Assembly (NCBI RefSeq): GCF_006345805.1
Contig: NW_021836775.1
Location: 1-22,782, forward strand
DNA length: 22,782 nt
From: Octopus sinensis
Lineage: Eukaryota
Reading direction: 5' to 3'
The position numbers and the translations under genes were made by a program. How positions within the stretch are numbered: position 1 is the stretch's first letter; each line of letters begins with the position of its first letter. A model generated the notes under the pieces. It was not told the origin of the DNA. It was given only the letters and a program-made list of their open reading frames with translations, and ran no database searches. Shown here in pieces: positions 2,463-22,782 of the stretch.

Positions 2463-2913
2463 TCTGCAAACTAGTCCGCTGTGACAAATAGTGTTTAGTA
2501 GGGAGTGTTAAAAGTGCAGTTGCAGGTGTCTCCCTCAATCTTGAATAGTAAAAGTTGGTGGGTCAGTTTGGTAGACGTGTAGTAATGATGTATTAAAATT
2601 ACAATAATCTAGAATAATTTTATCTGCTTCTCCTAAAAATATTTCAAAATTCTATCATGCACAACATATATAAATAAACCAGGGCATACACTGTGTATGT
2701 AGAAAGGAATGCTCCGGGTACGAATTTCAAGGAACAAATTCTCCTCACTTTGATGAGAGTTCGAACAATATGAACAACGCAGACAGTAATGGATCTGGTA
2801 TTAACAGTCAACTATGAGACTTGTTTCGGTCGTATTAGACCTTCTCAGTGAATCGGTGAAGCACATTCTTCGCAGTTGGTAAGTGTAAGAATGATCAATC
2901 TGTGTATGTGTGA

Positions 2914-3125
2914 TAGAGAGAGAGAAGAGGAAAGAGAGAGAGTGTAGAGAGAGGAGGGAGAGAGAGGAAGAAGAGAGAGGGGGAGAGAAAGGAGGAAGAG
3001 AGAGAGGAGAGGGGGAGCGGTGCGTGTGGATCTGTGTGTCGTATGTGAATGTGTATAAATGTATAATATATGTGTTTACATATACATATATATAGATAGA
3101 TTCATAGATACATATATATGGATAT
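2914..3125. repeat. GA-rich then TG/TA low-complexity tract
   Basis: Read directly from sequence. Confidence 0.85.
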
Positions 3126-3203
3126 ATATTATCACTATGGACTCCGTGTGGGCAGTCATCTAAAAGTTTTTGTTCGTCATGATGCTGACATAAGTTCCTT
3201 GTC

Positions 3204-3284
3204 TTTCCTGATGAGAAGGCGGCATAATGCACCCTTTATTCCTTCGGAATTAGGAATATGCAGTATTCGAAACATATGTCGAGA
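3204..3284 (+). ncRNA. Candidate minimal type I hammerhead ribozyme (Penelope-like element type)
   Basis: TTTC-CTGATGA(3208-3214)-G...long imperfect stem II...C-GAAA(3269-3272)-C-ATAT-G-TC(3280)-GAGA. Complete core consensus, palindromic ACATATGT stem III, 4-bp stem I, followed by AATAAA (3284-3289). Confidence 0.7.
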
Positions 3285-3326
3285 ATAAAGGAATTTTGTT
3301 AAATCGTCATTCGACTCCATTCTTTC

Positions 3327-3333
<7 letters not shown>

Positions 3334-3361
<28 letters not shown>

Positions 3362-3364
3362 GAT

Positions 3365-3433
<69 letters not shown>

Positions 3434-3535
3434 TACACACACATCTGTGTGTACATATGTGTATGTGTGTATAAATATATGGAAGAGAGAGAGAGAGACA
3501 AACAGAGAAAGACATACAGATAGAGAGTGGGGAAA
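3334..3535. repeat. (TA)n and GA-rich microsatellites
   Basis: Read directly from sequence. Confidence 0.9.
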
Positions 3536-4328
3536 ATGATATAGTGATTTATAAATATCAGGAAGAGAATGGAAGAGCAACCTGCAAAGTAAATATTAAC
3601 ACGACAGGAATGGGTTATCACATGGAAAGTTTTGATTACCTAACAATTAGAAGAACATATTTCGCTTCTGGTGTCCCCAGAATATTAGATGAACGGCTAA
3701 GGGAGATAACTGTAAGTAGATCCACTGGTTGAAGTCTGTATGGGAATCAAAAACTTCTGGTTTCATTAAATTGAAACAGCGTTGGTTTTCTCTCATGCCG
3801 AATAAGTTATCTCCTGGGAGGATCTGAAATACTCCCTTTCATAATGAAATGAAAGTTACGCGAAACGTTGGAGGGGAACTAATAATTAATAATTAACTGA
3901 GAATATATAACAGATATCTACATATTGATAACATATACAAGGGCAGCAAGAATAACAACAAAGCCTATCAGTCACCATCAGTCATGGGGTTCAGCTATCT
4001 AGTCATTGAACTTTCTAAAAATAGCAGCCAAATTACATTAAATTACGCGATAACGTCTTAATACATGAAGTATAAATTGGGCAATTTCGTCTTAGATACA
4101 ACATATAATCTGAAATTTTATAGAAAATATATTTGGGAACATACCAGCAGAAACATCATTAATTATAGATCTGCTCGATGAAGGCTGCCCAGCAACAAAA
4201 TAAATAACTATTGATGCTGCAGTAGATATTGAAACTTATGTTGGTATTACAGCTCTATATCTAAGAGTTGAGGAATTATGTACATTATTTACATTCGACG
4301 GATATTTGTCCTCATCTTGTTTGTTGTT

Positions 4329-4370
4329 AACACAACGTTTTGACTGATATAACCTCCAGCCTTCTTCAGG
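4329..4370 (-). ncRNA. Degenerate minimal hammerhead motif (G12 to A; 5' strand of stem I truncated)
   Basis: Minus strand reads C-CTGAAGAA-GGCTG-loop-CAGTC-AAAACGTT-GTGTT. Confidence 0.55.
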
Positions 4371-4493
4371 TTAATCACTACGACATATGCCCGTGGGCAT
4401 ATGGCGTAGTGGTTAAGAGCACGGGCTACTAACCTCAAGATTCCGAGTTCGATTCTAAGCAGTGACCTGAACAACAACAACAACAACAACAAC

Positions 4494-4546
<53 letters not shown>

Positions 4547-4670
4547 TAAGAAGAAGAAGAAGAAAGAAGAAGAAGAAGAAGAAGAAGAAGAAGAAGAAGA
4601 AGAAGAAGAAGAAAGAAGAAGAAGAAGAAGAAGACGACGAAAAATACTTTAGGAATGAGAATTTCCCCAA

Positions 4671-4716
4671 GACACCTGAAAAAGGCTGGAGGGTATATCA
4701 GCCGAAACGTTGTGCT
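4671..4716 (+). ncRNA. Degenerate minimal hammerhead motif (G8 to A)
   Basis: GACAC-CTGAAAAA-GGCTG-loop-CAGCC-GAAACGTT-GTGCT; 5-bp stem II and palindromic AACGTT. The inverted copy has the intact CTGAAGAA. Confidence 0.6.
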
Positions 4717-5187
4717 AACAACAAACAAGATGAGGACAAATATCCGTTGAATGTAAATAATGTTATATTGGTATTTTACATTGGTGCAAGGCCAAAAGTT
4801 GTTACCAGGAGATTTCAACACGTATGATAACAAGTGCTAACTGTAAAGACCTTGCCAGAAATGCAACGTATAGTGGACCTCAGTGAAATTTGAACGTAGA
4901 TAGACGACACTCAACACTAGTAAAATAATGAGTTAAAATTTTAGAGGCAGGCGTATTTGGTACTTATGAATTCTGGATGAAATGACCGTGAGCCAAATTC
5001 GAAGCCAGAAAGGGACCTCACTTGGTAATGAAGTAATTCAATCAACCCAATAGAAAATTCTATTTTTTCTTTCAGGCAGCGATGAGGAGCGGCTGATACT
5101 CTGATCATACTAGGTATCTTCATGAGAGAAGAATGGGATTGATGTGACTGATGTCTGTAAAAGTTGTATGAATGAGGAATAAACATT

Positions 5188-5348
5188 GGCGCAGGAGTGG
5201 CTATGTGGTAAGTAGCTTGCTTACCAGCCACATGGTTCCAGGTTCAGTCCCACTGCGTGGAACCTTGGGCAAGTGCCTTCTACTATAGCCTCGGGCCGAC
5301 CAAACCCTTGAGGGTGGATTTGGTAGACGGAAACTGAAAGAAGCCGTC

Positions 5349-5413
<65 letters not shown>

Positions 5414-5636
5414 GTGTGTATATGTTTGTGTGTTTGCGTTTGTCCCCCTAACATCGCTTGACAACCGATGCTGGTGTGTTTACGCCCCCGTAACTTAGCG
5501 GTTCGGCAAAAGAGACCGATAGAATAAGTATTAGGCTTACAACGAATAAGTCCTGGGGTCGATGTGCTCGACTAAAGGCGGTGCTCCAGCATGGCCACAG
5601 TCAAATGACTGAAACAAGTGAAAGAGTAAAAGAGTA
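5188..5636 (+). mobile_element. tRNA-derived SINE family C with internal TA/TG microsatellite
   Basis: GGCGCAGGAGTGGCT head, GGTTCAGTCC B-box, CCTTGGGCAAGTG (CORE-like) motif and AAAGAGT repeat tail; matches 10168-10572 in inverted orientation. Confidence 0.9.
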
Positions 5637-6821
5637 TTGGGCGAAATGCCTAAGTGCGGAATCGAGGAAGTGAGAGACAATAAGAATAGCAAGAGAAAGA
5701 GAATTGGGTGTGTCTGAGAGCAAAAATATCAGAGAAGTAGAAAGAAAAAATGTGGTTAAGGTAAAAATAAAAAGCAGATAGAAGAAATAACTTGCTTATA
5801 CATGTATAGGTGAAGCTTGTTGAACGAATTTTGTTAGTTTTGTTTTCTTTGAGAAAATGGTCTGGAATTTATGTTGAGTGCAATAGCATCAGCACTTACA
5901 GATATGTAAGTAAAAAGTTTAGTGTGCTCTGAGATGTTCCTCTGTGCATGTGTGCGTATGCGTGAGCGCACTTGTGTGTGTGTGTGTGTGTCACAGCAGA
6001 ACTGCCCCAGATATCTGAGTAGTCCTGCACTATGTCTTGGAGTTAAGAATGTTTGTGCCTGGTATGGTAACAACACCGCTGTCTCAGATATGTAAGCCAT
6101 ACTGAAATATAAGTTTAGCACGTATGTGTAACAACAGCGCTGTCCGAGTTATGTGAACAGTAGTTTAATGTGGTTTACGATAGATGTTTGTAGTAACGGG
6201 AGTAGTCTCCGATACATTCGCAGTACTGTATTGTGGTCTAGGATGTATTTACATGCAACAGAGACAATATTTCTGATATGTATGCAAGTCTGTTATATGG
6301 TCCAGAATATAGGAGTATCAGTAACATTGCCCCTGATACACGAGTAGTGCTATAATATGGTCTAGGACGGCTCCGTGCCTAACGGCAGCACTGCGATTTG
6401 GTCGAGGATGGATATGTGAAACAAACAGTAGCATTGTCCTAGAAAAGTGAGCAATACTTCAGTATTTGTCTAAGAAATATGAGAGCAATAACATCACTGC
6501 CTCAGACGTGAGCAGTATCGTGTTGTGGCTTAGGATGCCTGTCTGCATATTAGCAGTACTGTCCGAATGAAATATGGTGTAGAATGCCTCTGTGTGTAAC
6601 AGTAGCATTGTCCTAGATATGTGTGCAGTACAGTATCGTGGTTTCAGATGTCTGAATGCGTTATAGCACCAATGTCCAAGATATGTGGTCAATAGAATAT
6701 TTTGGTCTCGGCCGTCTGCTTGTGTATAGGAGAAGCATTATACCAGATATGTGAGTTGTAGTGCGACGTGAATGTAAGATGTCTATACATGTAACATCTG
6801 CACTGTACCAGGTATGTGAAT

Positions 6822-7125
6822 GTTTTTTGTTCCTTCTCGAGCTATGCCTGACACACAAGGGCCGGTTTCCCGGTTTCATCAGCGTATTGGTTCCCCACCT
6901 GGATGGGATGCTGGTCCGTCGCAAGTGAGCAGCTAGATGCAGGAGGAAAGAATGAGAGAAAGTTGTGGCGAAAGAGTCAGCAGAAGTTCGACATTACTTT
7001 CTGCCGGATCTGCGTGGAGCTTAGGTGTTTCACTCACAAACACACACATCGCCCGGTCTGAGATTCGAACCCGCGATCCCTCAACCGCCAGTCCACTGCT
7101 CTAACCACTAGGCCATGTGCCTCCC
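6822..7125 (-). mobile_element. tRNA-derived SINE family B, full length with TSD
   Basis: A-box TGGCCTAGTGG and B-box GGTTCGAATC on the minus strand; exact 12-bp TSD AGGTATGTGAAT at 6810-6821 and 7128-7139. Confidence 0.92.
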
Positions 7126-7187
7126 AAAGGTATGTGAATAGTTATTATAATAGTGACTCTTGAGATGTTCATATGCGAGTGTACCGG

Positions 7188-7283
7188 GTACGTTGGAGGC
7201 ATTGTAATGTGTGTAATGTGTGTACGTTGGAGGCATTGTAATGTGTGTAATGTGTGTACGTTGGAGGCATTGTAATGTGTGTA
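7188..7283. repeat. 34-bp perfect tandem repeat, ~2.8 copies
   Basis: GTACGTTGGAGGCATTGTAATGTGTGTAATGTGT starts at 7188, 7222 and 7256. Confidence 0.95.
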
Positions 7284-7814
7284 TAAAAAGAGAACTGTTT
7301 CAGGTAAGTTAGTAGTATTGTAATTTGGGTTTAGAATGTTCGTATGTGCAATACCAGCATTGTCCACATGAGCAGTACCGTATTGTGAATCTGACATGTG
7401 GTGTGTGTGTGTGTATGTGTAACACTAGCACAGTTCTATATATGTGTGTCTAGGATGCCTAGGTGTAAGAGCAGTCCTGTAATGTGCGTCTTAATTCACG
7501 CTCTTACAAGGCCCAGAATATTTCGTAAATAATCAACCCTAATAGTTAACTGGTATTCGTTTATTAGTGAAGGGGATGGAATCCCCAAAGTGACCGCACT
7601 TGACCGCCACTGAATATATTAGAGTATAGCAACACTAGAAGAAACCGCAGGAGCAGTTACGTCAACAACAGCACAAACAATGCTAGCCATGGTCAATCGA
7701 TCTGTTAAAATAGCAGCCAAATCTTTCTCAAATCAAATCTCAAAGGCCCGAAACTACGCGAACGCCACGGCTGGAAAGCATTTCACCAGAAGTTTTGTTA
7801 TTGCTGTGGAACCA

Positions 7815-7901
7815 ACAGCAGCTGTAGTAGTAGTAGTAGTAGAGTAATTGTGGTGGTGGTGGTGGTGGTGGTAGGTGAAGGAGCTGCAGCAGCAGCAGCG
7901 A

Positions 7902-7943
<42 letters not shown>

Positions 7944-8032
7944 CAGCAGCAGCAACAGGAGCAGCAGTAATAGTAATAGTAATTGTAGTAGTAGTAGTAG
8001 TAGTAGTAGCAGGAGGAGGAGGAGGAGGAGGA
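7815..8032. repeat. Compound trinucleotide microsatellite (TAG/TGG/CAG/GGA)
   Basis: Read directly from sequence. Confidence 0.95.
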
Positions 8033-8085
8033 AAAGGAGCTGCCGCAATTCTTAGCAGTAGAAAAGAAAAAATTAGTATAGCACT

Positions 8086-8950
8086 AGCCAGAGTAAGAGT
8101 AGCTGGAGTGGTAATGACGTGGTTGTGGTTTCGGTGGTAGTTTACGGTAGAGGCAGCCAGAGTAAGAGTAGCTGGAGTGGTAATGATGTGGTTGTGGTTT
8201 CGGTGGTAGTTTACGGTAGAGGCAGCCAGAGTAAGAGTAGCTGGAGTGGTAATGACGTGGTTGTGGTTTCGGTGGTAGTTTACGGTAGAAGCAGCCAGAG
8301 TAAGAGTAGCAAGAGTGGTAATGATGTGGTTGTGGTTTCGGTGGTAGTTTACGGTGGAGATAGCCAGACTAATAGTAGCAGAAGTGGTAATGTTGTGGTT
8401 GTGGTTTTGGTGGTAGTTTACGGTAGAGGCAGCCAGACTAATAGTAGCAGAAGTGGTAATGTTGTGGTTGTGGTTTCGGTGGTAGTTTACGGTAGAGGCA
8501 GCCAGAGTAATAGTAGCAGAAGTGGTAATGTTGTGGTTGTGGTTTCGGTGGCTGTTAATGGTAGAGGTAGCCAGAGTAATAGTTGCAGGAGTGGTAATGT
8601 TGTGGTTGTAGTTTCGGTGGTTGTTAATGGTAGAGGTAGCCAGAGTAATAGCAGCAGGAGTGGTATTGTTGTGGTTGTGGTTTCGGTGGTAGTTTACGGT
8701 AGAGGCAGCCAGAGTAATAGTAGCAAGAGTGGTATTGTTGTGGTTGTAGTTTCGGTGGTAGTTAATGGTAGAGGTAGTCAGAGTAATAGTAGCAGAAGTG
8801 GTAATGTTGTGGTTGTGGTTTCTGTGGTAGTTTATGGTAGAGGTAGCCAGAGTAATAGTTGCAGGAGTGGTAATGTTGTGGTTGTAGTTTAGGTGGTAGT
8901 ATTTAATTGTAGAGGTAGCCATATTAATAGTAGCAGGAGTGGTAATGTGG
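8086..8950. repeat. 69-bp minisatellite, ~12.5 copies
   Basis: AGCCAGAG anchors at 8086, 8155, 8224 ... 8845 and 8917; produces 23-aa periodic ORFs on both strands. Confidence 0.95.
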
Positions 8951-9184
8951 TGCTGGGGTGGTGATGACAGTAACTGTAAAAGTGGTAGTAGTGTTACTTG
9001 TGGTAGTGATGGTAGTTGTAGTACTAATAGTGGTAACGGTTGCGATGATAGTACTGGTGATAGTAGTAACGGTGGTGGAGGTGGTAGATGTGTGTTGGTG
9101 GTGGTGGTGGCTGGGGCAGTAGTATTTGTAGTTGTAGAGGTTTGGGCGATAGTATACTGGTAGCTGCGTTGTTAACGTTGTAGT

Positions 9185-9805
9185 GAGAGTTTCGAGGAAG
9201 AGAGAGAGAGAGAGATGGAAGAAAAAGAGGGAAAAAAAGGAGAGATGAAGGTATAAGACGGTGATAGGGAGAGTGAGGAGAGGGGAGAGGAGGAGGGAGT
9301 GGGGATGTAATTGTCCGGCAGAGAGTTGTATAGAGAACGAGTATGTCTGTCTTTATAACTTTATATCTGTCTCTCTCTCGTCTCATTTCTATGTTCTTCT
9401 CTCTCACCGTCTATCTCTCCATCTATCTATCTTTCTATCCATCTATCTATTCTGTCTCTCCCCATTTCTCTCTCTCTCTCTCTTTCTCTCACATTATCTA
9501 TCTATCTATCTAACTCAGTCTTCTTCTGTCTCTCACCATCTCTCTTTCTCTTTCTATCTGTATTTTTGTCTCTATCTTTCTCTCTCTCCCTTTCTCTCTC
9601 TCCCTTTCTCTCTCTCTCTCTCTCCCTTCCTCTCTCTCTCTCTCCATTTCTCTCTCTCTCTCTCTCTCCTCTCTCCGTCAATGTGTGACTCTTTTTTTTT
9701 ATCCCTCGCACACTCGCCCACACTCTTTATTTCCATTTCTGTGTGACTTTTCCTATCTCTCTCCCTCTCTCTCCCTCTCTCTCCCCCTCTCTCTCTCTCC
9801 CCCTC

Positions 9806-9853
<48 letters not shown>

Positions 9854-9860
9854 CCTCTCT
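9185..9860. repeat. Polypurine (GA) tract followed by a long polypyrimidine (CT) tract
   Basis: GA-rich at ~9195-9305, CT-rich at ~9365-9860. Confidence 0.9.
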
Positions 9861-10167
9861 TATTCAATAATTCCTAAATATGTCTCTTTGTATGCGAGTG
9901 TCTCTCTCCCTCAATGTATCAGTGATTGTTTTTATCTCGGTATATTCAATTGTGAATGTGTGCGTGTGTGTATACATATGTATGGAAGTAAGAATATACT
10001 ATGAAACGACGTCTTTATCTGACTATGTATATATCCGTGATCGCCGATATATATTGGTGTGTGTGTGTGTGTGTGTTTATGATCTTTGTGTGTGTGTCAG
10101 TATGCGAATGATGTCCCTCTCTAAGTGCACGCACGCAGTGTCAGCATGTTTGCGCCTGTGAAGATAT

Positions 10168-10572
10168 TACTCTCTTTTACTTGTTTCAGGCATTTGACTG
10201 CGGCCATGCTGGAGCACCGCCTTTAGTCGAGCAAATCGACCCCGGGCCTTATTCTTTGTAAGCCTAGTACTTATTCTATCGGTCTCTTTTGCCGAACCGC
10301 TAAGTGACGGGGACGTAAACACACCAGCATCGGTTGTCAAGCAATGCTAGGGGGACAAACACAGACACACAAACACATACATACATATATATATATATAT
10401 ACATATATACGACAGGCTTCTTTCAGTTTCCGTCTACCAAATCCACTCACAAGGCATTGGTCGACCCGGGGCTATAGCAGAAGACACTTGCCCAAGATGC
10501 CACGCAGTGGGACTGAACCCGGAACCATGTGGTTGGTTAGCAATCTACTTACCACACAGCCACCCCTGCGCC
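10168..10572 (-). mobile_element. SINE family C, full length
   Basis: Reverse complement of 5188-5636. Confidence 0.9.
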
Positions 10573-10600
10573 TTGGATACATATATATATTATATATAGA

Positions 10601-10753
10601 AGTGGCTGCGTGCTAAGAAGTTTGCTTCCCAAGCACATGGTTCTGTGTTCGGTTCCCCTGCGTGTCACCTAGGGAAAGTGTCTTCTACTATAGCCTTGAG
10701 CTGACCAATCCTTGTGAGTGAATTCGGTAGACGGAAACTGAAAAAAGCCCGTC

Positions 10754-10791
<38 letters not shown>

Positions 10792-11023
10792 TTGTGTGAG
10801 TGTGTGTTTATGTATATATGTATATATGAATGTATTTGTGTGTCCGTGTTTGGCCCCCACCTCATCGTTTGACAACCGATGTTCATATGTTTATGTCCCC
10901 GTGTCTTAGCGGTTCGTTAAAGGTGGGCGATAGAATGAGTCCGAGGTTTACTAAGAATAAGTCCAGGGTTCGATTTGTTCGATTTTGCCGCAGTCAAATG
11001 ACAGAAACAAGCAAAACAATAAA
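10601..11023 (+). mobile_element. SINE family C, more diverged copy
   Basis: AGTGGCTGCGTGCTAAGAAG head, GGTAGACGGAAACTGAAA, GACAACCGAT and CAGTCAAATGACAGAAACAAG tail. Confidence 0.85.
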
Positions 11024-11032
11024 CGCATGAAA

Positions 11033-11107
11033 GATATATACATGTGTGTGTGTGTATAAATATATATATATATATATAATATATATATATATATATTATA
11101 TATATAT

Positions 11108-11150
<43 letters not shown>

Positions 11151-11204
11151 ATATATATATACATATAAATATATATATATAAATTCTTTATAATATATAT
11201 ATAA

Positions 11205-11235
<31 letters not shown>

Positions 11236-11260
11236 CATATATATACATATATATATATAT
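11033..11260. repeat. (TA)n microsatellite
   Basis: Read directly from sequence. Confidence 0.95.
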
Positions 11261-11416
11261 ACGACGCGCTTCGTTTCAGTTTCCGTCTACCAAATCTACT
11301 CACAAGGCTTTTGGTCGGCCTGAGGGTATAGTTGAAAACACTTGCCGAAGATGCCACGAATCCGAACTGAAACCGGAACCATGTTGTTGGAAAGCAATCT
11401 TCTTACTGCACAGCCA
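11261..11416 (-). mobile_element. SINE family C, 5' half only
   Basis: TTTCAGTTTCCGTCTACCAAAT...CACAGCCA matches 10421-10562; a further deleted tail remnant lies at ~11495-11570. Confidence 0.85.
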
Positions 11417-11695
11417 TATATATACACCATATATATACACACCATATATACAAGACCATATATATACACACATACACATATATGTTTTCTTTAGTTGTTT
11501 CAGGAATTTGGCTGCGGACATGCTGCGGAATCACCTCCAAAGGGATAGGGGCAAACACAGACACAAGAACATACGCAATATATATATATACACACACACA
11601 CACACATATATGCATATATATACATTACCTGTTTCCATCACTCACAACAAGGACGAGGCGTTGGGCTTTGAGAGACATAACACATATACATATGA

Positions 11696-11785
<90 letters not shown>

Positions 11786-11793
11786 GATAGATA

Positions 11794-11851
<58 letters not shown>
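11696..11851. repeat. (GATA)n microsatellite
   Basis: Read directly from sequence. Confidence 0.97.
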
Positions 11852-11852
<1 letters not shown>

Positions 11853-12068
11853 TGTTTCTTTATTAGCCACACAGGGCTGCACACAGATGGGACAAGTTAC
11901 AAGGTAGAGCTTTTCTTTTGGGGGATGAAAAAAAAAACAAAAGAAACAAAAAAAAGGGGGTGGCGTAGGTTTTCGATCAAGAGGGATCGTAAAAGGGAAG
12001 AAAAGAACAAAAAAAATAAATAAATGAATAAAATAAAAAAGAAAAAAAGAAAAAGAAAAAAAAAAAAA
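11853..12068 (-). mobile_element. Probable 5'-truncated non-LTR retrotransposon 3' UTR embedded in (GATA)n
   Basis: Minus strand ends TGTCCCATCTGTGTGCAGCCCTGTGTGGCTAATAAAGAAACA followed by (TATC)n; GATA repeats on both flanks (11696-11851, 12069-12082). Confidence 0.5.
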
Positions 12069-12635
12069 GATAGATAGATAGAAAATGTCTGCGTATGTAT
12101 TGGTATCTCTATATATATATGCATATATAAATGTACACCCATACATATATATATATGCATGTATGATGTATATATATATATATCTTATTTGTTTAGATAT
12201 TAATCTATGTAGGAATACGTTCATGTATGCATGTATGTATGTATGTATGTATATGTATGGCTGCGCATACACGTGAATATATGTCTATATAAAAGTGTAT
12301 GTATATGTGTGTGTGAGAGGAAGTGCGCCCGTACGTTGCTGTGTGTACGCGTATAACTCTGCTTGTAACTATATCTGTGCGTGTGTGTTAGATATATTTG
12401 TGTCTGTGTGTTTGATTCACAAACGGTCCTAAGCAATGCGTATAAATAAATGTAAGACTATGTTGAGTCGGTGGAGGCATTCTAGCTTTTGCACCCCTGG
12501 AATATGGTATGACATAAGAGTATGGTGAGTGAATCTTGTCAGTTGAGAAGTCTAGGGTTCGTATCACACCCGTGACGTTGTTTCGTTAAGTAAGGTTCTT
12601 CTCCCTTCGTCGACATCGTCGTTGCTGACAGCGAT

Positions 12636-12732: not shown

Positions 12733-12733
12733 A

Positions 12734-12930: not shown

Positions 12931-12934
12931 TTTA

Positions 12935-13505
12935 GGCAGCGAGGTGGCAGAATCGTTAGTACGCAGGGCGAAATGCTTAGCGGTATTTCGTCTGCCGTTA
13001 CGTTGTGAGTTCAAATTCCGCCGAGGTCGACTTTGCCTTTCATTCTTTCGGGGTCGATAAATTAAGTACCAGTTATGCACTGGGGTCGATGTAATCGACT
13101 TAATAACTTCGTCTGTCCTTGTTTGTCCCTTGTGGGTAATAAAGAAATAGGTATTTCGTCTGCCGCTCCGTTCTGAGTTCAAATTCCGCCGAGGTCGACT
13201 TTGCCTTTCATCCTTTCGAGGTTGATAAATTAAGTACCAGTTACGCACTGGGGTCGATATGGTCGACTTCATTCGTCTGTCTGTCATTGTTTGTGCTCTC
13301 TGTGTTTAGCTCCTTGTGGTTAGTAAAGAAATAGGTATTTCGCCTGTCTTTACGTTCTGAGTTCAAATTCCGCCGTGGTCGACTTTGCCTTTTATCCTTT
13401 CAGGGTCGATAAATTAAGTACAATTTGCTTACTGGGGCTCGATCTAATCGACTAGCCGCCTCCCCAAAAATTTCAAGCCTTGTGCCTAGAGTAGAATAGA
13501 ATATT
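12935..13505 (+). mobile_element. Composite SINE A: head + core-tailA + core-tailA + core-tailB
   Basis: GGTATTTC unit starts at 12982, 13150 and 13334. Confidence 0.9.
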
Positions 13506-13519
13506 CAAGAAGTACTGAA

Positions 13520-13904
13520 GGCAGCGAGCATGGCAGGTGAAATGCTTAGTGGTATTTCGTCTGCCGTTATGTTCTGAGTTCAAATTCTGCCGAGGTCGAC
13601 TTTGCCTTTCATCATTTCAGGGTCGATTAAATACGTACCAGTTACGCACTGGGGTCGATATAATCGACTTAATCCATGTGTCTGTCCTTGTTTGTCCTCT
13701 CTGTGTTTAGCCCCTTGTCGGTAGTAAAGAAATAGGTATTTCTTCTGCCGCCACGTTGTGAGTTCAAATTCCACCGAGCTCGACTTTGCCTTTCATCCTT
13801 TCGGGGTCGATAAAATAAGTACCAGTTGCGTACTGGGGTCGATCTAATCGACTGGCCCCCTTTCAACACTTTCGGGCTTTGTGCCTAGAGTAGAAATGAA
13901 TATC
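13520..13904 (+). mobile_element. Composite SINE A: head + core-tailA + core-tailB, with TSD
   Basis: Units start at 13551 and 13735; exact direct repeat CAAGAAGTACTGA at 13506-13518 and 13905-13917. Confidence 0.88.
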
Positions 13905-14369
13905 CAAGAAGTACTGATTGTTTTTGTTGTCTCTACAGCATTATATTTTCCCAGTTTTTGATTTTATTCAAATTGAATATCATCATTCATAAAACTAGCG
14001 ATAATATTAATAACTTAGCATTCATGAGACAATCGAAATGAATTTTCCTGCAAGTTTTAGTGATTGCATTTATTCCTAGTTGTATAAAACTATTTAAGAG
14101 AAACGCACATTTTAACTATCAAGGGTTCATAGTAAGTTATGATATTCAGGTTCAAGAATCTATTTATTTAATTAAGAAGAGAATTTACTAAACAAATTTA
14201 AATAATAGATACAATGAATCCATACAATGCATCCATAGAGCGCATCCATACGGTAACCCAGCAATAAAAATTATTTGAGTGTTTACTTTGAGGAACAAAC
14301 TAAGTGATCGCATATAATGGAACAATGGTTAGCTCTTTTCTTTTTCTTTCTTTTCGGTTAGAAGCACAA

Positions 14370-14573
14370 GTATCGTTACACTGTCGGGAAAAGTCTTAGT
14401 GGTATTTCGTCCGGCTCAACGGGCTTAGTTCACTTTCTGCAAACGCCAGCTTTGCCTTATATCCCGTAGGGAGTCGATAAAATAAAGTACTAGTCAAGTA
14501 CTGCGATCGATGGTATGGGCCAATCCCTCCTCTCAAAATTGTTGGCCAAGTTCAAAAAGCACTATTATTATTA
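14370..14573 (+). mobile_element. Old diverged SINE A-like copy with (TAT)n tail
   Basis: CTTAGTGGTATTTCGTCC, CTTTGCCTTATATCCC and GTCGATAAAATAAAGTACTAGTCAAGTACTG motifs. Confidence 0.7.
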
Positions 14574-14811
14574 TTAGCCCCTTGTGGGTAGTAAAGAAAT
14601 TGGTATTTCGTCTGCCGCTACGTTCTGAGTTCAAATTCCACCGATGCCGACTTTGCCTTTCATCCTTTCGGGGTCGATAAATTAAGTAATCGACTGGCCC
14701 CCTTTCAAAACTTTCGGGCTTTGTGCCTAGAGTAGAAAAGAATATCCAAGAAGTACTAATTGTTTTTTTTTTTTGTCTCTACAGCAGGATATTTTCCCAG
14801 CTTTTGATTTT
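14574..14811 (+). repeat. Local duplicate of 13707-13965 (SINE A 3' part plus flank)
   Basis: Shares diagnostic variants and ~60 bp of flank (CCAAGAAGTACT...GTCTCTACAGCA..ATATTTTCCCAG.TTTTGATTTT). Confidence 0.85.
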
Positions 14812-15092
14812 GTTAGGGAAGGGTGTTCCACTCACGATCGCGAGATCGTGGATTCAATTCCTAGACCGGGTGGTCCGTTGTCGGGTGGTCCGTTGTGTTC
14901 TTGAGCATTTCATCTCAACGTTGCTCCGCTATCACTCCGATACCTGACGCTTGGCACACTTTGCACCGTTTCGGGTAAGGTCGATTTGATGGAGAGATTG
15001 AGCTAATGTACACCACATAAATTTGATCACTATAAACGAATCATTTGGGGAGGCCGTTCGGCAAAAAAAGCTGAATATTCATCGTTATAAGA
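14812..15092 (+). mobile_element. tRNA-derived SINE family D (diverged)
   Basis: tRNA-like CACTCACGATCGCGAGATCGTGGATTCAATTCC, then GTGTTCTTGAGCA; 15-bp tandem duplication at 14867-14896; 3' boundary approximate. Confidence 0.6.
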
Positions 15093-15119
15093 CAGTAGTT
15101 CTGCGTGATTTGGGTATGT

Positions 15120-15454
15120 ACTGTGCTTTGTTTTATAATGCTGTTATTTTTACGGTATGGGAAGTGTTTTACGTAGGATATGTGAGGTCCATAGCAGTGT
15201 GCTATTTTCTGTATGTTAATATATATTCGTAAGTCCTGGTGTTTTCATTATGTATTTGTGTGTATGGTTTTAACCATATCTAATGCACTTATTATTGAAG
15301 TGATTATTTCTTATCTTCAGGCTCCACGCTCGTGTAATCTCTATTTCGAGATATTTATATTTCGAGTCTTGTGTTGGGATTGATATGTGGATTAGAAGAC
15401 ATTTTTTGGTCCCTCACAACAATATCTGGTCCATTAGCCCTGATCTTTCACACA

Positions 15455-15490
<36 letters not shown>

Positions 15491-16320
15491 ACACTCTCAC
15501 TTTCTCACTATCACTCTATTTCTCTATCTCCCCCTCTCTTTCCCCCCTCTCTCTCTGTGAATTGGCATGTCCCAGATTGTGGTTGTTTTGTCGTTTTCTG
15601 CATTTCCTGTCTTTTTTCCATTCTCATTCCAAAGTGCTGCACAACTCCCAATTCTGTCATGTCTGTGTATATATTCCTTCTTTGCTAGAACTGGGCAACC
15701 AGAAACAACATGATTTATTATTGTATCTTCCCCATCACTATATATTCTGCAGTTACTTATTGTATTTTTTATCATTATGTAATTTTGGTGGTTGCTGGTG
15801 GGGAGGCTTTGATCTTGTGCCGCAATTATAAACCCTTAAGTCTCTGCTTCGAGTTCGGAACTTTTCAACCAGTGTGAGAATTTTACTTTATTTCTTTTCT
15901 GTTTGGCTTATCCAAGTATTAGCCACGGAAGGGCTTTTCTTGCCATCGTCTTCTCGCGGTTCTTTGTAGTTTCAGTTTTGGCTTAGATTTTAGTTGCTTT
16001 ACAACTTTTGATGCTTCTTCTTTTTCTTCATAGCTGTCAGCTATTATAAACTCTTCCTTGTATTTTTCGGCTTCAAGTCAGAAAAGATTCTTTTTCTTTT
16101 TACTCATGCTATTTGTTGCAGATTTCCTCGGTTCTGAATTAGATATTCCTGTTGTCCTATGTTGGGTATTTTATAGCTGTTTTCTAGTTGTGTAAAAACT
16201 CTAAGACCTTCAATTCGTTGTATTTTCAACATTTCTGTGTCAGATTGTGGTTGGTGTTGTCTAGTACGGATATTCACTTAGTGTCAGTTTAAAAATATTG
16301 TAATTATAACTTATAACCGG
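15120..16320 (-). pseudogene. Decayed restriction-like-endonuclease non-LTR retrotransposon (R2 group, R4/Dong-like), C-terminal part
   Basis: Minus translations: CRIY..INHVVSGCPVLAKKEYIHRHD (decayed CCHC knuckle plus RHD), IWDMPIH, KIRANGPDIVVRD / CLLIHISIP (PD-D nuclease motif) and terminal TSHILRKTL. Frameshifted; 5' boundary approximate. Confidence 0.8.
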
Positions 16321-16356
16321 GAAAACTAGAGATAATATTTTTATCATTATTATTAT

Positions 16357-16905
16357 TGAGTGAGAGAGCAATGCATGCTACCAAAGCGACACTGGGGTAC
16401 AAATATACGAAGCCCGGTATACCCATAATGACCACCCATCTGATAATTGTACACCAGGCACATCCATATCAATCAAATGTGCGTGATCTGGTGATCTCAT
16501 AATAGGATGAACAGGACATGACTTTGCCGGTTAGGCTCAGTTAGAAATTTCTTTAGGTCGAATAGCCCATTCAGCTCAAAAGGTCTCTGAATAAGGGTTG
16601 TTTAAGGATGTTGAACGAAACACCCACCTTTCCAAAGGTGAATTATCCACCATGAGCAGCAGTAGTGCTCCCCCACTACTTCTGCTCATGATCAGAGATG
16701 CACATATTGTCAGCCACTAAGGGCCATGCTTAACTGGTTCAGATCAAACAACTGACAGGCAAATCTGTGGTATTGAGCAGAATATTTGCTGTAGCCCATC
16801 TTTTATACCAAGACAAAACAATGTACATGATAACACTTCCAATCAGAAGCCATGAGTTAAGATCAGAAGCCATGAGAGCCACTGTCTGGTACTGCATCAG
16901 GGCGT
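16357..16905. mobile_element. Non-coding interspersed repeat bounded by (TTA)n arrays
   Basis: Higher-complexity ~550-bp block with TTA repeats on both sides; recognised from memory as an octopus repeat, but single copy in this window. Confidence 0.5.
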
Positions 16906-16978
16906 TTTCTTCTTCTTCTTCTCTTCTTCTTATTATTATTATTATTATTATTATTATAATTATTATTATTATTATTAT

Positions 16979-17013
<35 letters not shown>

Positions 17014-17072
17014 AGTAGTAGTAGTAGTAGTAGTACAAACACACACACACGTGTGTGTATATATATAATATA

Positions 17073-17103
<31 letters not shown>

Positions 17104-17106
17104 AAT

Positions 17107-17163
<57 letters not shown>

Positions 17164-17165
17164 TA
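16906..17165. repeat. Compound (CTT)(TTA)(GTA)(CA)(TA) microsatellite
   Basis: Read directly from sequence. Confidence 0.95.
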
Positions 17166-17183
17166 GATACGTATGTTTCTAAA

Positions 17184-17405
17184 GGCGGCGAGCTGGCAGA
17201 AACGTTAGCACGCCGGGCAAAATGAGTAGCCGTATTTCGTCTGCCGTTACGTTCTGAGTCCAAATTCCGCCGAGGTCGACTTTGCCTTTCATCCTTTTGG
17301 GGTCGATAAATTAAGTACCAGTTACGCACTGGGGTCAATGTAATCGACTTAATCAGTTTGTCTGTCCTTATTTGTCCCCTCTATGTTTAGCCCCTTGTGG
17401 GTAGT

Positions 17406-17408
<3 letters not shown>
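17184..17408 (+). mobile_element. SINE family A, head + core + tail A
   Basis: Closely matches 1127-1361 (reverse) and 12935-13150. Confidence 0.92.
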
Positions 17409-17441
<33 letters not shown>

Positions 17442-17793
17442 CGTATATATATATATATATACGTATGTATACATATATATATTCAAACATATTTTGCGTG
17501 TTAAATAAGGAGTAGAAATGAGAGTATTCACTACTCTAAATAGTGATATTATACAAATTATTTGAAGCTGAAACTTCCCAATTCGTGGCTCCAGTTTCTA
17601 GCTTGTGATTTTCAGACAATTCCGGTTGCAGTGAAGTGACTGAAAACCATTGAAACAATACAAGTGAAACTATTGATAGCGGGCATCTAAAAATTAATAT
17701 TTAAAGCTTTTAGAGATATTGGAGATAAAACGTGTATTCTACTCCAGGTGGAAAGCCACATACGTATTCACACGATCAAATGAAGTGACAGTA

Positions 17794-18359
17794 TTGGGTT
17801 CTCGGGAAAGTTCGTGCCGATTTTTAAAGGAAAGAAAAATGTCAATAAATACTTGCCATTACATTTTTAATCAACCAAATATGAACCATGTTGTTGCACA
17901 ATGCGTCTCCATCTTTCCTTTAACTTGAAAATACCCTCTCCCCAGAATTGAGGTGGTTTCATGGCAAAGAATTCATCAAGGTATCTTTTTACGTCATCCA
18001 AGGTATTGAAATTTTTACCATTAAGACTATTCTGCAGAGACCTGAATAAGTGGAAATCTGAAGGAGCAATATCTAGTGTATATGGCGGGTGGGGTAACAC
18101 ATCCCAGCCGAGAAACAGCAATTTTTGTCTGGTTCCCAAAGCATCAAGTGCCGAAAATGAACTTTCTTATCTTCCATTTTAAAGGGTTACAGAATTAACA
18201 CGGGTTATAGGAACATAAATCTTCTGCCACGAAAAGATAGCTTAAACTGTGCTCTAAATGGAGGTGTAGTCAAATCCTATTTTATGGACTCAATTATGTT
18301 CTGAAATAAGTCGAAAGGTAAGCTACTATAAATCGGCACGAACTTTCCAGACAACCCAG
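17794..18359 (-). mobile_element. Internally deleted mariner (mellifera-like) with TIRs and TA TSD
   Basis: 30-bp TIRs at 17794-17823 and 18330-18359 (27/30 match); TA at 17792-17793 and 18360-18361. N-terminus MEDKKVHFRHLML (ATG at 18177) is joined to C-terminus LGWDVLPHPPYTLDIAPSDFHLFRSLQNSLNGKNF...ERWRRIVQQHGSY. Confidence 0.93.
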
Positions 18360-19093
18360 TAGGTAGGAAGTTTCGTGCAATAATATAAAACAAAGCGGAA
18401 AGAGAAAGGAGAATGGAAACTGTCTCAAGCACTGTCTACGTTATGTTTGGTGCACCATACCATCTGGATCAGGCTTCTTATTCTTGGATATGGTTAACTG
18501 TGTAAGGTGTGTGGTTAAAGGGGTGACTGGAATTGATTGTTGATGCATATTTTCATCAATTACAGACAGTTACAAGCAATGATACAGTCTATACATAGTC
18601 GCTAGAAATAGGAGCCAAATTCCCTTCAAGTTCAGAACCCTGTATAAATAAGGAACGGGCAAGTTAATAACGGACTGAGAAATTGAGTGTGACTCAGTTG
18701 GAACACTCTACACTGCTTCTCTAGCCACACTCAGTTTTGCTGTATCACTTTTCTAGTTCAAGTGCACTCAGTTTCCCTACCCATTTTACTCCCTCAGCGA
18801 CACTCAGCGGCCAGAAATAGTAAAAGCTAAGCCATTAGCGGACGAACAGAGCATACACAGTGCTGCTGCTGCTGCTGCTGCTGCTTGAGGTGAATGGTGG
18901 TGAGTAGGGTTTCGCAGGGACGTGAACCGGACAAATAGCATGAGCGGCCACTAAGCATCGGATCGATACTGACACGTCATCGGCGAAGCTTACTTTGCTA
19001 AGTGCACGCCAACACGGGAAACACTAACATAATATAATAATTCACTATAAACTAAACGAACCATCATGACGGCAGCTGCAACACGTTAACACA

Positions 19094-19147
<54 letters not shown>

Positions 19148-19152
19148 TGTAC

Positions 19153-19200
<48 letters not shown>

Positions 19201-19323
19201 ATACATGCATACATACATATATATATACATACATAGACATACATATATATACACATATATATATATACATATATCTATATATACATATATATAGGTGTGT
19301 GTGTATGTATGTATATACATATG

Positions 19324-19356
<33 letters not shown>

Positions 19357-19512
19357 ATGTATCTATACATACATAAACATATGGGTTTATACATACGCAC
19401 ATATACATATGTAATGTGTGTATATATATTTATGTATATGTGTATATATAGGTATATACATATATACGCATATATACATTTATTAGTGTGTGTGTGTGTG
19501 TGTGTGTGTGTT
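19094..19512. repeat. (TG)n/(TA)n compound microsatellite
   Basis: Read directly from sequence. Confidence 0.95.
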
Positions 19513-19690
19513 TGGATAAATTAAATAAATTTGTTATTTTAAAGTTATTTTAGGAGTAAGAAATACCGATCACTCATGGAGTGACTCAGTATTATGAGTG
19601 GAGTGAGACTTATCGATGGAATATCAAGTTACGTGTTTTGGCTTGTTGTACCTGGCTGAATCGTCCAAGTCCATATATAGTCATATATTG

Positions 19691-20468
19691 ATGAGGTACG
19701 TTCAAACAGCATCAGGCTTTATCTTTTTTTCCGCCAAAATTAATGCCGCATGGGCAAAATCCTTTGTGTGGGACTTGACGGCACCCCACCTGGGCATGAG
19801 AGAAAACTTTTACGCCGGTAGGCCGCAGCAGTTCCTGGTTCTTATGCCTAAAGTACTAGGTGCAGTTGTGTAGTGTGCCCTTATCGGATTTTTGTTTTCA
19901 CAGATGACCAAGCGCACCAGCAGACACCAGAAACTCATGTCTCATCACCAGCGATGATGGTTAACATGAAGTGTGGGTCGTGGTCTTCACAGTCTCAGAG
20001 TGATTCCCATGCGAAGTTGCTTCTACTGTTCCGCCAGCACATTAGGGACTAATGCCGCTGGTACTCTCCAAATGCACAAGCATTCCTTTAAATGGAATAT
20101 ACAGATCCTGTGTTTATTCCCACATCGTGAACACATTCCTGGATTGTTCTGTGACGGTCTTCATGACTATTTGCCGAACTCTCTCAATCAGTTCTTCGTT
20201 TCGGTTTGTAGAAGACCCGCTTGAGCGTGCCTCGGTCTCCACTGAGGAGCTGCCATACTTGAAGCAGTTGTGCCACTCCTTGATCTGAGTTTTAGCCATG
20301 ATATAAACGCCAAAGGACTGCTGCGGTGACTGACACGGTCTACCGGCACCGAAATTTTGTCATGATCACATGAAGGATGGCGCCACCTCCCTCCAAAAGG
20401 ACTTTGCCCACGTGATATTAGTTTTGCCGAGAAATAATGAAGGCGGATTCTCTTTCAACGCACCTCAT
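19691..20468 (-). mobile_element. Decayed mariner with long (~95 bp) inverted termini
   Basis: Outer IRs at 19691-19719 and 20440-20468 (~23/29 match), continuing to ~19787 and ~20375. Minus translations: KTQIKEWHNCFKYGSSSVETEARSSGSST (HTH region) and TIIAGDET*V (first catalytic D). Confidence 0.85.
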
Positions 20469-21092
20469 GTGTGTATACACTCACACACACACATAGACGG
20501 TTTGTGCATATGGTATATAGATCGTAAAATAGTCATACGGTTTTTTTAAAGATATGTTATACGTTTTTAATTTGATTTTTAATTTTTAATTTTTAAATTT
20601 TATTTCATAAATATATTATAATATTTATATAAGTAATAATGGACTTTTTTTTTGGTTATATGTCTATATATTTATTGATAGGGAACATTTTAGATTTTTA
20701 ATTACTATATTTGTTGATTATGAATTTGATACTTATTTTATGTATTTATTATTTTATAATTATTAGATGTGAACTTAAATCTAAAATTATTAATAGTGAT
20801 TATTTTGTTAAATAATTTGGTAATTAAATATTGGAGTATAATTCAGTTAAAGATATTCGAGAGTTTATTATGTTTTTTAAAGCCAAATTATATCTTCAAA
20901 GATAAATACATATTTCTATCTATTTTTTGTACTGTAAAAATTAAATATTTAACATAATAAATCTGTTGTACGAAATAATCCTAATGTTTATTTATTAATG
21001 GAGTTTTTTCTATAAAAAATATTATTATTTTATTCATTTCTTCAATAAATATTGTTTAACTCTATTTGCTTATTTATTTAACTATTATCATT

Positions 21093-21194
21093 AACCTGAA
21101 GATTGACTATAATTTTAAATCGAATTTATTTCAATTGAATTTAAACTTAATTGTAATTCGAATTTAATTGTAGCCATGAAACAAACGTAGTGTT
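21093..21194 (+). ncRNA. Candidate type I hammerhead motif with long AT-rich stem II
   Basis: AAC-CTGAAGA(21096-21102)-T-TGACTATAATT...AATTGTAGCCA-T-GAAA(21178-21181)-C-AAAC-GTA-GTGTT. Core intact; stem I weak; U-U at the base of stem II. Confidence 0.5.
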
Positions 21195-21238
21195 TTTACT
21201 TATTATATTATATATTTATCATTCATTTCATACTTTTT

Positions 21239-21637
21239 GAGATCTAGTTATAAGTTATATGTTTTATAAAAATATATATTATTTGTTATTTATGTATTGG
21301 TTTATGTCTATCACTGTTTGAATTGCATAATAGTGGTTTTATCTCTAATTTATATTTTATATATACATATATATATACGTATGTATATAAATTAGAGAAA
21401 AACCACTATTATGCAATTCAAACAATGACAGACATGTTTGTGATCTAGTTATATGTTTTAAAAAATATATTTTATTATTTATTTTTTTAATTATGATTTG
21501 GTTTATGTCTATCATTGTTTGAATTGAATAATAGTGTTTTTTCTCTAATTTTTATATTATATATTTATATTGTGAAATTTGATTTAATACTAAATTGAAT
21601 TTTTCCCTGTAAGTTTGGAGTTACTACACCTAATATA

Positions 21638-21640
<3 letters not shown>
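21239..21640. repeat. Direct/inverted/direct arrangement of an AT-rich element tail
   Basis: 21304-21355 is inverted at 21385-21435; 21241-21351 is repeated directly at 21442-21551. Confidence 0.85.
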
Positions 21641-21670
<30 letters not shown>

Positions 21671-21672
<2 letters not shown>

Positions 21673-22014
21673 CGGAGATGCACTTGCATAGAAAATGAAT
21701 TGATCTGAGAAAAAAAAACAATTGCAGCATGGAAGATATTTGTAAGCGATTTAAGAACGCACAAAAACCGGTTAGATTCACTGCAACATTTAATTTAATT
21801 TTGATTTGTTTCAAAATATTTTTGTCGGTTTGAAACCGCGATCTGTTCACTGACAAAAATTCCGTACAGCACGAAGCTTTGTCAGTGAACAGGTCGCGGT
21901 TTCAAATCGAGGAAAATATTTTGAAACAAATTAAATTTAAATGTTGAAGTGAATCTAACCGGTTTTTGTGTGTTCTTAAATGGCTTATAAACACCTTCCA
22001 CGCTGCAATTGTTT
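21671..22014. mobile_element. Palindromic element with ~140-bp arms, each carrying a G3-C8 hammerhead-like motif
   Basis: Arms at 21716-21857 and 21878-22014 with a 20-nt spacer; right arm reads TCA-GTGAACA-G-GTCG..CGAG-GAAA-ATAT-TT-TGA. Confidence 0.75.
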
Positions 22015-22029
22015 GTGTGTGTGTGTATT

Positions 22030-22071
<42 letters not shown>

Positions 22072-22102
22072 CATCTGCCATAATATATAATATACATCTG
22101 CC

Positions 22103-22544
22103 ATAATATACATCTGGAAGATCCTGGTGGGAAGTGTCCTGAACTTTGGCATCGAGAGTTACGCAAATGCCAGAACTGGGCGCCACTGCGTGGTGCCTAG
22201 GACTCCAAACCTGCCATCAAGATGTAGGACAAGATTCTGTGATAGCCTGGGCTTCCGAGGCCCACAGCTCTTCAATATCCTCCCGAAGAACCTGAGAGAC
22301 CTGCATGGGGTGGATACAGATGTCTTTAAAATGAAGCTGGATCTCTTCTGTCAGGTGTCCCAGATGAACCAACTTCACGGCAGGAGGGACAGATGAGGGC
22401 AGCTGCATCGAACTCTCTCATGCACCAAATAGCAGTCGCTAGAAAGCCTCCATGAAGTGAAAACCAAGTAGTAGCAACACCAAAGCGGTTGCCGCAGCTT
22501 GCACAGCTCATAAGCTGACACTAGAATCAATCAATCAATCAATC
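22103..22544 (+). mobile_element. 5'-truncated LINE (CR1/L2-group-like) ORF2 C-terminus and 3' UTR with (AATC)5 tail
   Basis: YIWKILVGSVLNFG...SLGFRGPQLFNILPKNLRDL..VFKMKLDLF, then frameshifted SGVPDEP; tail at 22525-22544. Clade assignment is uncertain. Confidence 0.8.
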
Positions 22545-22555
22545 ATATATATATA

Positions 22556-22610
<55 letters not shown>

Positions 22611-22700
22611 TGTTGTTTCTGAGGAGAGTTATTTTTCTGTGCCTTATAATTTTAACACACTCACCGGTTAAAATTTCCACTTATTTCTTATTTTTCTTCT

Positions 22701-22737
22701 CTAAAATTTTCGTTGCGTCTTACAACCTTTTCAATAG
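22701..22737 (-). ncRNA. Possible U3-A8 variant minimal hammerhead motif
   Basis: Minus strand reads CTA-TTGAAAA-G-GTTG-TAAGACG-CAAC-GAAAATTT-TAG; 3-bp stem I, 4-bp stem II, palindromic AAATTT. Confidence 0.4.
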
Positions 22738-22782
22738 TCTTGACTCTACGTTATTTACACTGCGCTCCGCTTTTGTTGGTTG

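Follow-up and report, generated by a model that had tools for sequence, protein, structure and literature searches.

A natural G3-C8 hammerhead motif fixed in a Neptune-type Penelope-like lineage of Octopus sinensis

Minimal hammerhead motifs are known from Penelope-like elements (PLEs), where low activity as dimers has been reported and a U3-A8 pair has been found in the Cercyon elements of Schistosoma (PMC4209133). A G3-C8 pair has been described as an engineered swap, by which the cleavage of a type III hammerhead is restored (PMC9901934) and that of a PLE hammerhead is restored in part (PMC11167929); it is treated as an engineered mutant in PMC3884650, too. The role of PLE hammerheads in vivo is in question, since their cleavage is slow and insertion in vitro does not depend on them. 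The stretch considered here, called the window, comprises the 22,782 nucleotides of contig NW_021836775.1 of Octopus sinensis, whose genome (2.72 Gb) is abundant in short interspersed elements (SINEs) and microsatellites. Hammerhead-shaped motifs recur in it in five repeat families, designated A, B, D, E, and G, and the leading explanation, held with fairly high confidence, is that they represent minimal type I hammerheads located in terminal repeats of several PLE families. In family G the pair at core positions 3 and 8 is G3-C8, and this state is fixed in a young, protein-coding lineage of Neptune type. A bolder reading, at a probability of about 0.45, is that the hammerhead fixed in family G, a recently mobile PLE lineage, would be active with its natural G3-C8 pair, that its sister lineages would display three pairings at one orthologous site, that copies with a broken core could be cut by a dimer partner, and that the same genome would house a tRNA-headed SINE moved by Penelope machinery.

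In the window, the family G motif with its G3-C8 pair lies at 21878..21928 on the plus strand (G3 at 21885), and this copy has undergone C11.1G and a second change in stem II. An inverted copy at 21807..21857 on the minus strand (G3 at 21850) is decayed by G12A and G10.1A. Both belong to an inverted pair of pseudo-long terminal repeats (pLTRs) at 21669..22014, consisting of a minus-strand repeat at about 21669-21870, which has the longer tail end, and a plus-strand repeat at about 21867-22014. The pair is bordered by microsatellites and represents the end of a Neptune-type PLE. In the layout of the family, stem I has 7 bp, and stem II has 5 bp with a closing G-C pair; A9 is followed by an additional G, the 6-nt palindrome is perfect, and position 17 is U. 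A 22-nt pattern of family G in which positions 3 and 8 were left free gave 5,276 matches in the genome, and the reversed pattern used as control gave 0. Among the first 100 matches, 92 had G-C, three G-U, two C.C, two G.G, and one U.C. Since the eight departures are single ones and none of the 100 has C-G, G-C is regarded as the founding state and the departures as decay. An exact 34-nt pattern gave 1,070 matches; 28 of 67 inspected loci sit inside a 2-kb composite repeat, owing to which the match counts are partly non-independent. This composite unit of about 2 kb (L211, L212, and 26 further loci), which is 94-98% alike and tandem in places, took up a single pair of inverted G repeats and has multiplied it by its own spread.

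The ends of family G were surveyed in 68 copies outside the composite set (one of them, L027, is of composite type) with a reference that began at -22. The 5' end lies 20-22 nt upstream of the core in 42 of the 68 copies, and the 3' end lies near +125 in 22 and near +185 in 35. An inverted neighbor was found in 35 copies and a (TA)n terminus in 23, and same-strand neighbors were limited to one duplicated pair. The copies are dispersed singly or as inverted pairs, not in tandem arrays. The G stretch is present in 20 sequencing runs under four organism labels, none of which is recorded as an RNA run; in four runs no alternative letter was seen at position 3 or 8, a weak negative as that whole end yielded no entries.

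Family G has a protein-coding parent. Its frame starts with an ATG about 95 nt downstream of the core and is extended to a PLE-type N-terminus by two database proteins, and the proteins continuing the frame are named Octopus proteins by their sources. The database protein P0001, in which the frame start is fused to a methyltransferase domain, is probably a gene-model chimera. At contig ends in four sequencing runs and in locus L196, a branch-point-like/pyrimidine tract is found just upstream of G, with a broken endonuclease further up. The order of features is thus a splice-site-like tract, the hammerhead, the ATG of the reverse transcriptase (RT)-endonuclease frame, and two preferred 3' ends within this frame. 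Locus L283 represents a near-complete element with a G3-C8 motif followed by frames of 608 and 475 aa, which are split by one frameshift and encode RT motifs, a CxxxCxxC zinc-finger-like linker, and a GIY-YIG domain (Pfam E 6e-5). A second G3-C8 hammerhead follows 4.36 kb downstream, so that the motif is located at both ends of the element, and the pLTR-open reading frame-pLTR structure is found in L283 and L284. An RT followed by a C-terminal GIY-YIG domain with a CX2-5CxxC linker is present in both G and E (motifs read; GIY-YIG from Pfam). Pfam gave no RT family match for the G and E proteins, and a PDB search gave only a weak RT match. No relatives were found in prokaryote genomes, and one distant RT match was found in viral contigs. 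At least 150 endonuclease copies belong to the G lineage, the best of which are 95-99% alike with open frames of up to 1,042 aa. In 40 loci picked by the endonuclease (20 at 95-99% and 20 at 63-89% identity), the motif follows downstream in 27, with G-C in 26 and G.G in one. An endonuclease fragment upstream of G in locus L015 was rejected as parent; its two relatives are not followed by the motif.

Copies of all five families were evaluated with a strict descriptor, defined as a type I hammerhead with any Watson-Crick 3-8 pair. The family samples consisted of the genomic loci best matching the window copy and are biased accordingly; one overlapping locus was removed in G and one in E. The descriptor was passed by 10 of 29 copies in G, 21 of 29 in E, 19 of 30 in A, 27 of 30 in B, and 0 of 25 in D, where 8 of 25 pass if a U.U closing pair is permitted. 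Of 500-600 dinucleotide shuffles, the control put forward in the preliminary description of the window, 0 passed in every family. The core N3-UGAN-N8-A, GAAA, and UH with a Watson-Crick 3-8 pair is present in families G, E, A, and B, and its letters are also present in D; stems I and II, G10.1-C11.1, an extra nucleotide after A9, and a palindromic stem III are found together in G, E, and A. The pLTR location of the motif in a PLE is established for G, E, B, and D. In the window, the strict descriptor matches at two positions (3208 and 22734), whereas 40 block shuffles gave 0.175 matches on average and never more than 1; there are just two because the remaining window copies have decayed. The recurring layout claimed in the preliminary description is thereby real in five families, most of whose window copies are decayed. 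Each of the positions given there is the stem I end of a hammerhead-shaped motif, and the identity as minimal motifs of Penelope type is borne out. The canonical C3-G8 identity is replaced by G3-C8 in G and U3-A8 in E, and both families would, as anticipated, be missed by a search for CUGANGA only. Rfam matches in the window (E up to 5) did not include a hammerhead, and an intact family G motif had no hammerhead match in Rfam (E up to 10). Searches restricted to C3-G8/U3-A8, and Rfam, miss thousands of motifs in this one genome.

The family E motif lies at 22701..22737 on the minus strand, has U3-A8 with U3 at 22734, and passes the strict descriptor. It is part of a pLTR at 22605..22781 (minus strand), the 3' end of a Neptune-type PLE, which is cut by the contig end. 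The motif has a stem I of 3 bp, a stem II of 5 bp, a 4-nt palindrome, and U17. It was found downstream in 25 of 30 loci chosen by the 3' untranslated region (UTR), and fragments with RT or endonuclease homology were found upstream in 10 of the same 30. The repeats had initially been taken as unrelated, which is wrong for G and E: they are sister Neptune-type lineages. A further Neptune-type sister, family H, has C3-G8, and A9 is replaced by C in 27 of 28 motifs (L286-L320, e.g. L295:690-750). C9 was also observed in L363, there with U3-A8. In a quick tree, G, E, and H form one branch among 78 relatives (Shimodaira-Hasegawa-like approximate likelihood ratio test, SH-aLRT, 95); the trees took in database relatives without named Neptune references. 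The three sister lineages have three different 3-8 pairs: G-C, U-A, and C-G, respectively.

In related metagenome contigs, the motif is present behind the endonuclease in 6 of 11 loci (four by script, two by eye), with U-A in two, C-G in four, and G-C in none. Among metagenome PLE motifs read by eye, L369:4965-5010 has U15.1-A16.1, and L366:1670-1720 has G at position 4. A second quick tree, with 22 rows, requires four or more changes of the 3-8 state, with G-C arising once and no mismatch at the level of a lineage. All of 12 lineages have a Watson-Crick pair at 3-8 (eight C-G, three U-A, one G-C); the chance of all 12 pairing is 5e-4 with position 8 shuffled, a value that ignores kinship and the eye-picking of the window families. 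As positions 3 and 8 always change as a pair between lineages, selection for the tertiary pair is suggested. The covariation proposed initially thus exists between lineages and is absent inside any family: G-C is found in 28 of 29 copies of G and U-A in 29 of 29 of E, and C-G is found in 26 of 30 copies of A, 30 of 30 of B, and 25 of 25 of D.

It has to be considered that G3-C8 marks a dead or nearly dead hammerhead, that transposition takes place without cleavage, and that a role as promoter, leader, or protein-binding hairpin maintains the sequence. This explanation is judged unlikely; a number of observations weigh in its favor or against the leading explanation. In PAc (Poseidon, Anolis; Frangieh et al. 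2024, PMC11167929), insertion in vitro is unaffected by hammerhead mutants, and RNA ends were not seen at the hammerhead site; canonical hammerheads are absent from the thriving Naiads (Craig et al. 2021, PMC8557442). Every genomic G copy derives from uncut RNA, and 13 of the 40 endonuclease-picked loci are without a motif within about 2.2 kb (one reaches the contig end). The motif is also conserved no more strongly than the adjacent UTR. Between two subfamilies of G, 5 of 9 loop II columns differ compared with 0 of 42 columns of core, stems, and palindrome, and a single column of 53 differs in the UTR that follows. Selection is thus weakly indicated within G, and the loop II change may be one event. 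The A9C of family H indicates that a possibly non-functional change of the core can become fixed. Stem I is poorly formed in monomers of E (0.17), A (0.02), and B (0.10), whereas in the G monomer stem I and stem II are predicted with probabilities of 0.94 and 1.00, respectively, in favor of the leading explanation. The dimer is not the lowest-energy fold: two strands give -28.8 kcal/mol as a double hammerhead vs. -32.7 kcal/mol for the lowest fold, and a natural tandem pair gives -46.0 vs. -56.7 kcal/mol, energies that leave out tertiary contacts. Against a dead motif stands that, of all pairs covered by a full pairwise scan, two transversions hit the only one at which compensation restores activity (PMC9901934), that the other core positions, both stems, and the palindrome are all intact in G, and that Watson-Crick pairing at 3-8 is kept across the 12 lineages. 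On balance, activity of the family G motif is judged slightly more likely than not.

As part of the leading explanation, ribozyme activity is likely preserved with the G-C core but slow, and dependent for cleavage on a partner copy or on the protein of the element. The G monomer is unable to close stem III, and a cut would thus need two copies paired through their palindromes or the help of a protein as in PAc. The presumed transcription start lies about 23 nt upstream of the G core in the first of the two repeats, and the RNA would carry two motifs 4.4 kb apart. Reverse transcription would be primed at two sites within the frame start, as for PAc (PMC11167929). Priming in the downstream repeat would lead to 5'-truncated copies with the endonuclease upstream, and priming in the upstream repeat to the thousands of solo copies of 150 and 210 nt with a fixed 5' end, so that the two internal sites would explain both the long truncated copies and the fixed-end solo repeats. 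Inserted G copies hold the whole motif, which indicates that the RNA templates were uncut. Short G copies often have an extra G at the 5' end (GAG in 10 of 28, vs. YAG in 25 of 26 endonuclease-linked copies), which may derive from a copied RNA cap. The idea that it stems from a short spliced first exon was rejected, as a GAGGT donor was not found upstream in four copies. According to the bolder reading given above, the gap of two transversions would be crossable because a dimer partner could still cut a copy with a broken core.

The preliminary description interpreted the repeats as a non-autonomous, retrozyme-like radiation; retrozymes would spread via tandem arrays and circular RNAs cut by the ribozyme. 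Most copies are indeed short and non-coding, and a preprint derives animal retrozymes from pLTRs (10.64898/2026.07.22.740005). Furthermore, two same-strand G arrays of 4 and 8 units with a spacing of 166-214 nt (L261:1880-2540, L269:1780-3222) were found among 25 loci chosen by frame start. In every array unit, host (TA)n and one short flank common to all units are included, as in a local duplication. Such arrays are possible raw material for retrozymes. The copies have their 3' ends within the protein-coding frame instead of at the cut site, retrozymes have canonical hammerheads in tandem repeats instead of minimal ones (PMC7229834), and G, E, B, and D (four of the five families) are fragments of protein-coding PLEs with an endonuclease or RT upstream on the same strand. 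The retrozyme reading is largely refuted for these four families, and as a general explanation it is very improbable.

The coding context of families B and D is known from endonuclease fragments only, which are 35% alike between the two. In the window, the family B motif lies at 3195..3292 on the plus strand (C3-G8, C3 at 3208, stem I end 3204) and passes the strict descriptor; the surrounding pLTR at 3128..3330 (plus strand) has a (TA)n terminus and is a PLE 3' end, whose endonuclease looks to be of Hydra type. Members of the Hydra clade have an endonuclease without CCHH, a CxCX5C linker, and a DKT motif. The motif has a long stem II with an inner hairpin, an 8-nt palindrome, and C17, and is without the extra nucleotide after A9 in the parse used. 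The endonuclease is found upstream in L100, L107, and L108 and is collinear with that of L118 (Pfam E 0.001, under the cut-off). By its complementarity to the 3' strand of stem I (3283-3291 in the window copy), a 9-nt segment of loop II (3233-3241) could give rise to a competing fold. The hammerhead-like motif of family D at 21093..21192 on the plus strand (C3-G8, C3 at 21096, G12 at 21178) has a long AU-rich stem II with a U.U closing pair and a palindrome that is broken in this copy; it lies in an AT-rich PLE 3' region at 20514..21392 (plus strand). The core was found in 24 of 30 loci picked 0.8 kb upstream, six of which have a further 0.8-1.5 kb in common, and one locus (L412) contains part of an endonuclease, about 2.2 kb 5' of the core. 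In many D copies (L405-L433, near 1500), the 5' end coincides with or slightly precedes a pyrimidine tract that terminates in AG and is located about 0.8 kb from the core, a pattern that echoes the fixed 5' end of G. An assignment of family D to the published Naiad_Ovul 'half core' was dropped; six short motifs were unmatched in the supplement of PMC8557442, and the upstream fragment is an endonuclease of C-terminal type.

Non-autonomy could be maintained for family A only, and there it is SINE-like rather than retrozyme-like. The complete insertion at 4282..4765 consists of an inverted partial copy, a tRNA-like head, an (AAC/AAT/AAG)n run, and a tail with the hammerhead. The motif in the tail (4671..4716, plus strand, C3 at 4676) has G8A in place of the C3-G8 state of the family, and the motif in the inverted partial copy (4329..4371, minus strand, C3 at 4369) has G12A and a shortened stem I. 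The head at 4385..4472 (plus strand) contains box A-like and box B-like motifs; ARAGORN and Rfam called no tRNA in it. The combination of tRNA-like head, trinucleotide run, and hammerhead tail, often with an inverted partial copy, is characteristic of the family: the head is found in 15 of 30 loci picked by the tail, and the tail follows 73-254 nt beyond the head in 22 of 28 loci picked by the head, a count from which two loci already present in the sample were removed (L061-L090, L374-L403). A coding parent element was not found for family A. It is likely a SINE-like passenger using a PLE 3' end; literature searches, as far as their sources extended, gave no report of Penelope-moved SINEs. 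The Sm-alpha SINE-like repeats of Schistosoma and non-LTR retrozymes (LTR, long terminal repeat) resemble family A in being non-autonomous and having a type I hammerhead (PMC6765202, PMC6155905, PMC7229834), and in Sm-alpha the promoter is likewise followed by the hammerhead (PMC6765202, PMC6155905). Sm-alpha and retrozymes differ by canonical hammerheads in tandem arrays, whereas family A combines a minimal hammerhead with dispersed copies and inversions of PLE type. Retrozymes, Sm-alpha, and short non-autonomous Penelope elements are also covered by PMC2837043 and PMC6685494.

Chance matches in AT-rich repeats, for which it could be said that just two of seven listed window motifs pass the strict descriptor and that family D and the motif at 2815-2851 fail it, are a negligible explanation, refuted for G, E, A, and B by the failure of all shuffles and by the motif at its known PLE position in the metagenome loci. 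The motif at 2815..2851 (minus strand), with which the recurrence had been thought to begin, is a decayed hammerhead-like remnant without the core letters and with positions 3 and 8 unpaired; a DNA search retrieved no family, its look-alikes are limited to four decayed ones, and it may owe its form to chance. It is not used as support. Among the other repeats of the window, a tandem array at 8086-8952 has 12.5 copies of a 69-nt unit that are 91% alike; the unit length is a multiple of three, and the array could be coding on the minus strand. One SINE-like repeat is present in several copies (12931-13920, 14571-14760, 17182-17408, and 1122-1361), which are partly tandem with a spacing of 168-184 nt.

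The present families have in common with the minimal PLE hammerheads of PMC4209133 the type I layout, the extra nucleotide after A9, the short stem I, and the palindromic stem III, as well as the motif in both pLTRs, the prevalence of solo copies, and nearby copies on opposite strands. Family G differs by its G3-C8 pair: 0 of the 56 motifs in Fig. S3 of that paper start with G3, which its descriptor could not have found, and no cephalopod is among the 56 rows. Natural 3-8 covariation was described by Perreault et al. 2011 (PMC3088659), together with a U10.1-U11.1 closing mismatch as in D and a U15.1-A16.1 pair as in L369; in section 8 of that paper, U3-A8 is the only variant, and G3-C8 does not appear. 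The literature searched gave no report of octopus hammerheads or of a natural G3-C8 pair; Lünse 2017, Przybilski and Hammann 2007, and Hammann 2012 lie outside its coverage and may bear on novelty. Thus, minimal PLE hammerheads and natural U3-A8 are already published, and G3-C8 appears to be new as a natural, fixed, high-copy state.

The clades of PLEs have been defined by Craig et al. 2021 (PMC8557442), and the Neptune-type endonuclease-containing (EN+) PLEs described there correspond to G, E, and H in the single frame of RT and C-terminal GIY-YIG with a CX2-5CxxC linker, and further in the pLTRs, inverted 5' copies, tail, and (TA)n targets. The tail of G measures about 60 nt compared with the usual 30-40 in these elements. 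The same linker as in Neptune-type elements is found in Nematis. In family G, a compensatory double change is fixed in a young multi-copy lineage beside sisters with U3-A8 and C3-G8, which would provide natural evidence for selection on the fold. The natural pair, the single mutants, and the revertant form a ready test set, with near-intact protein partners in the same genome. PAc resembles G in having a hammerhead beside the frame start and two internal 3' ends in the frame (PMC11167929). It belongs to a different clade, its natural core is C3-G8, and its ATG precedes the cut site, whereas the ATG of G follows the cut site by about 60 nt. The engineered C3G/G8C mutant of PAc has the core that is natural in family G.

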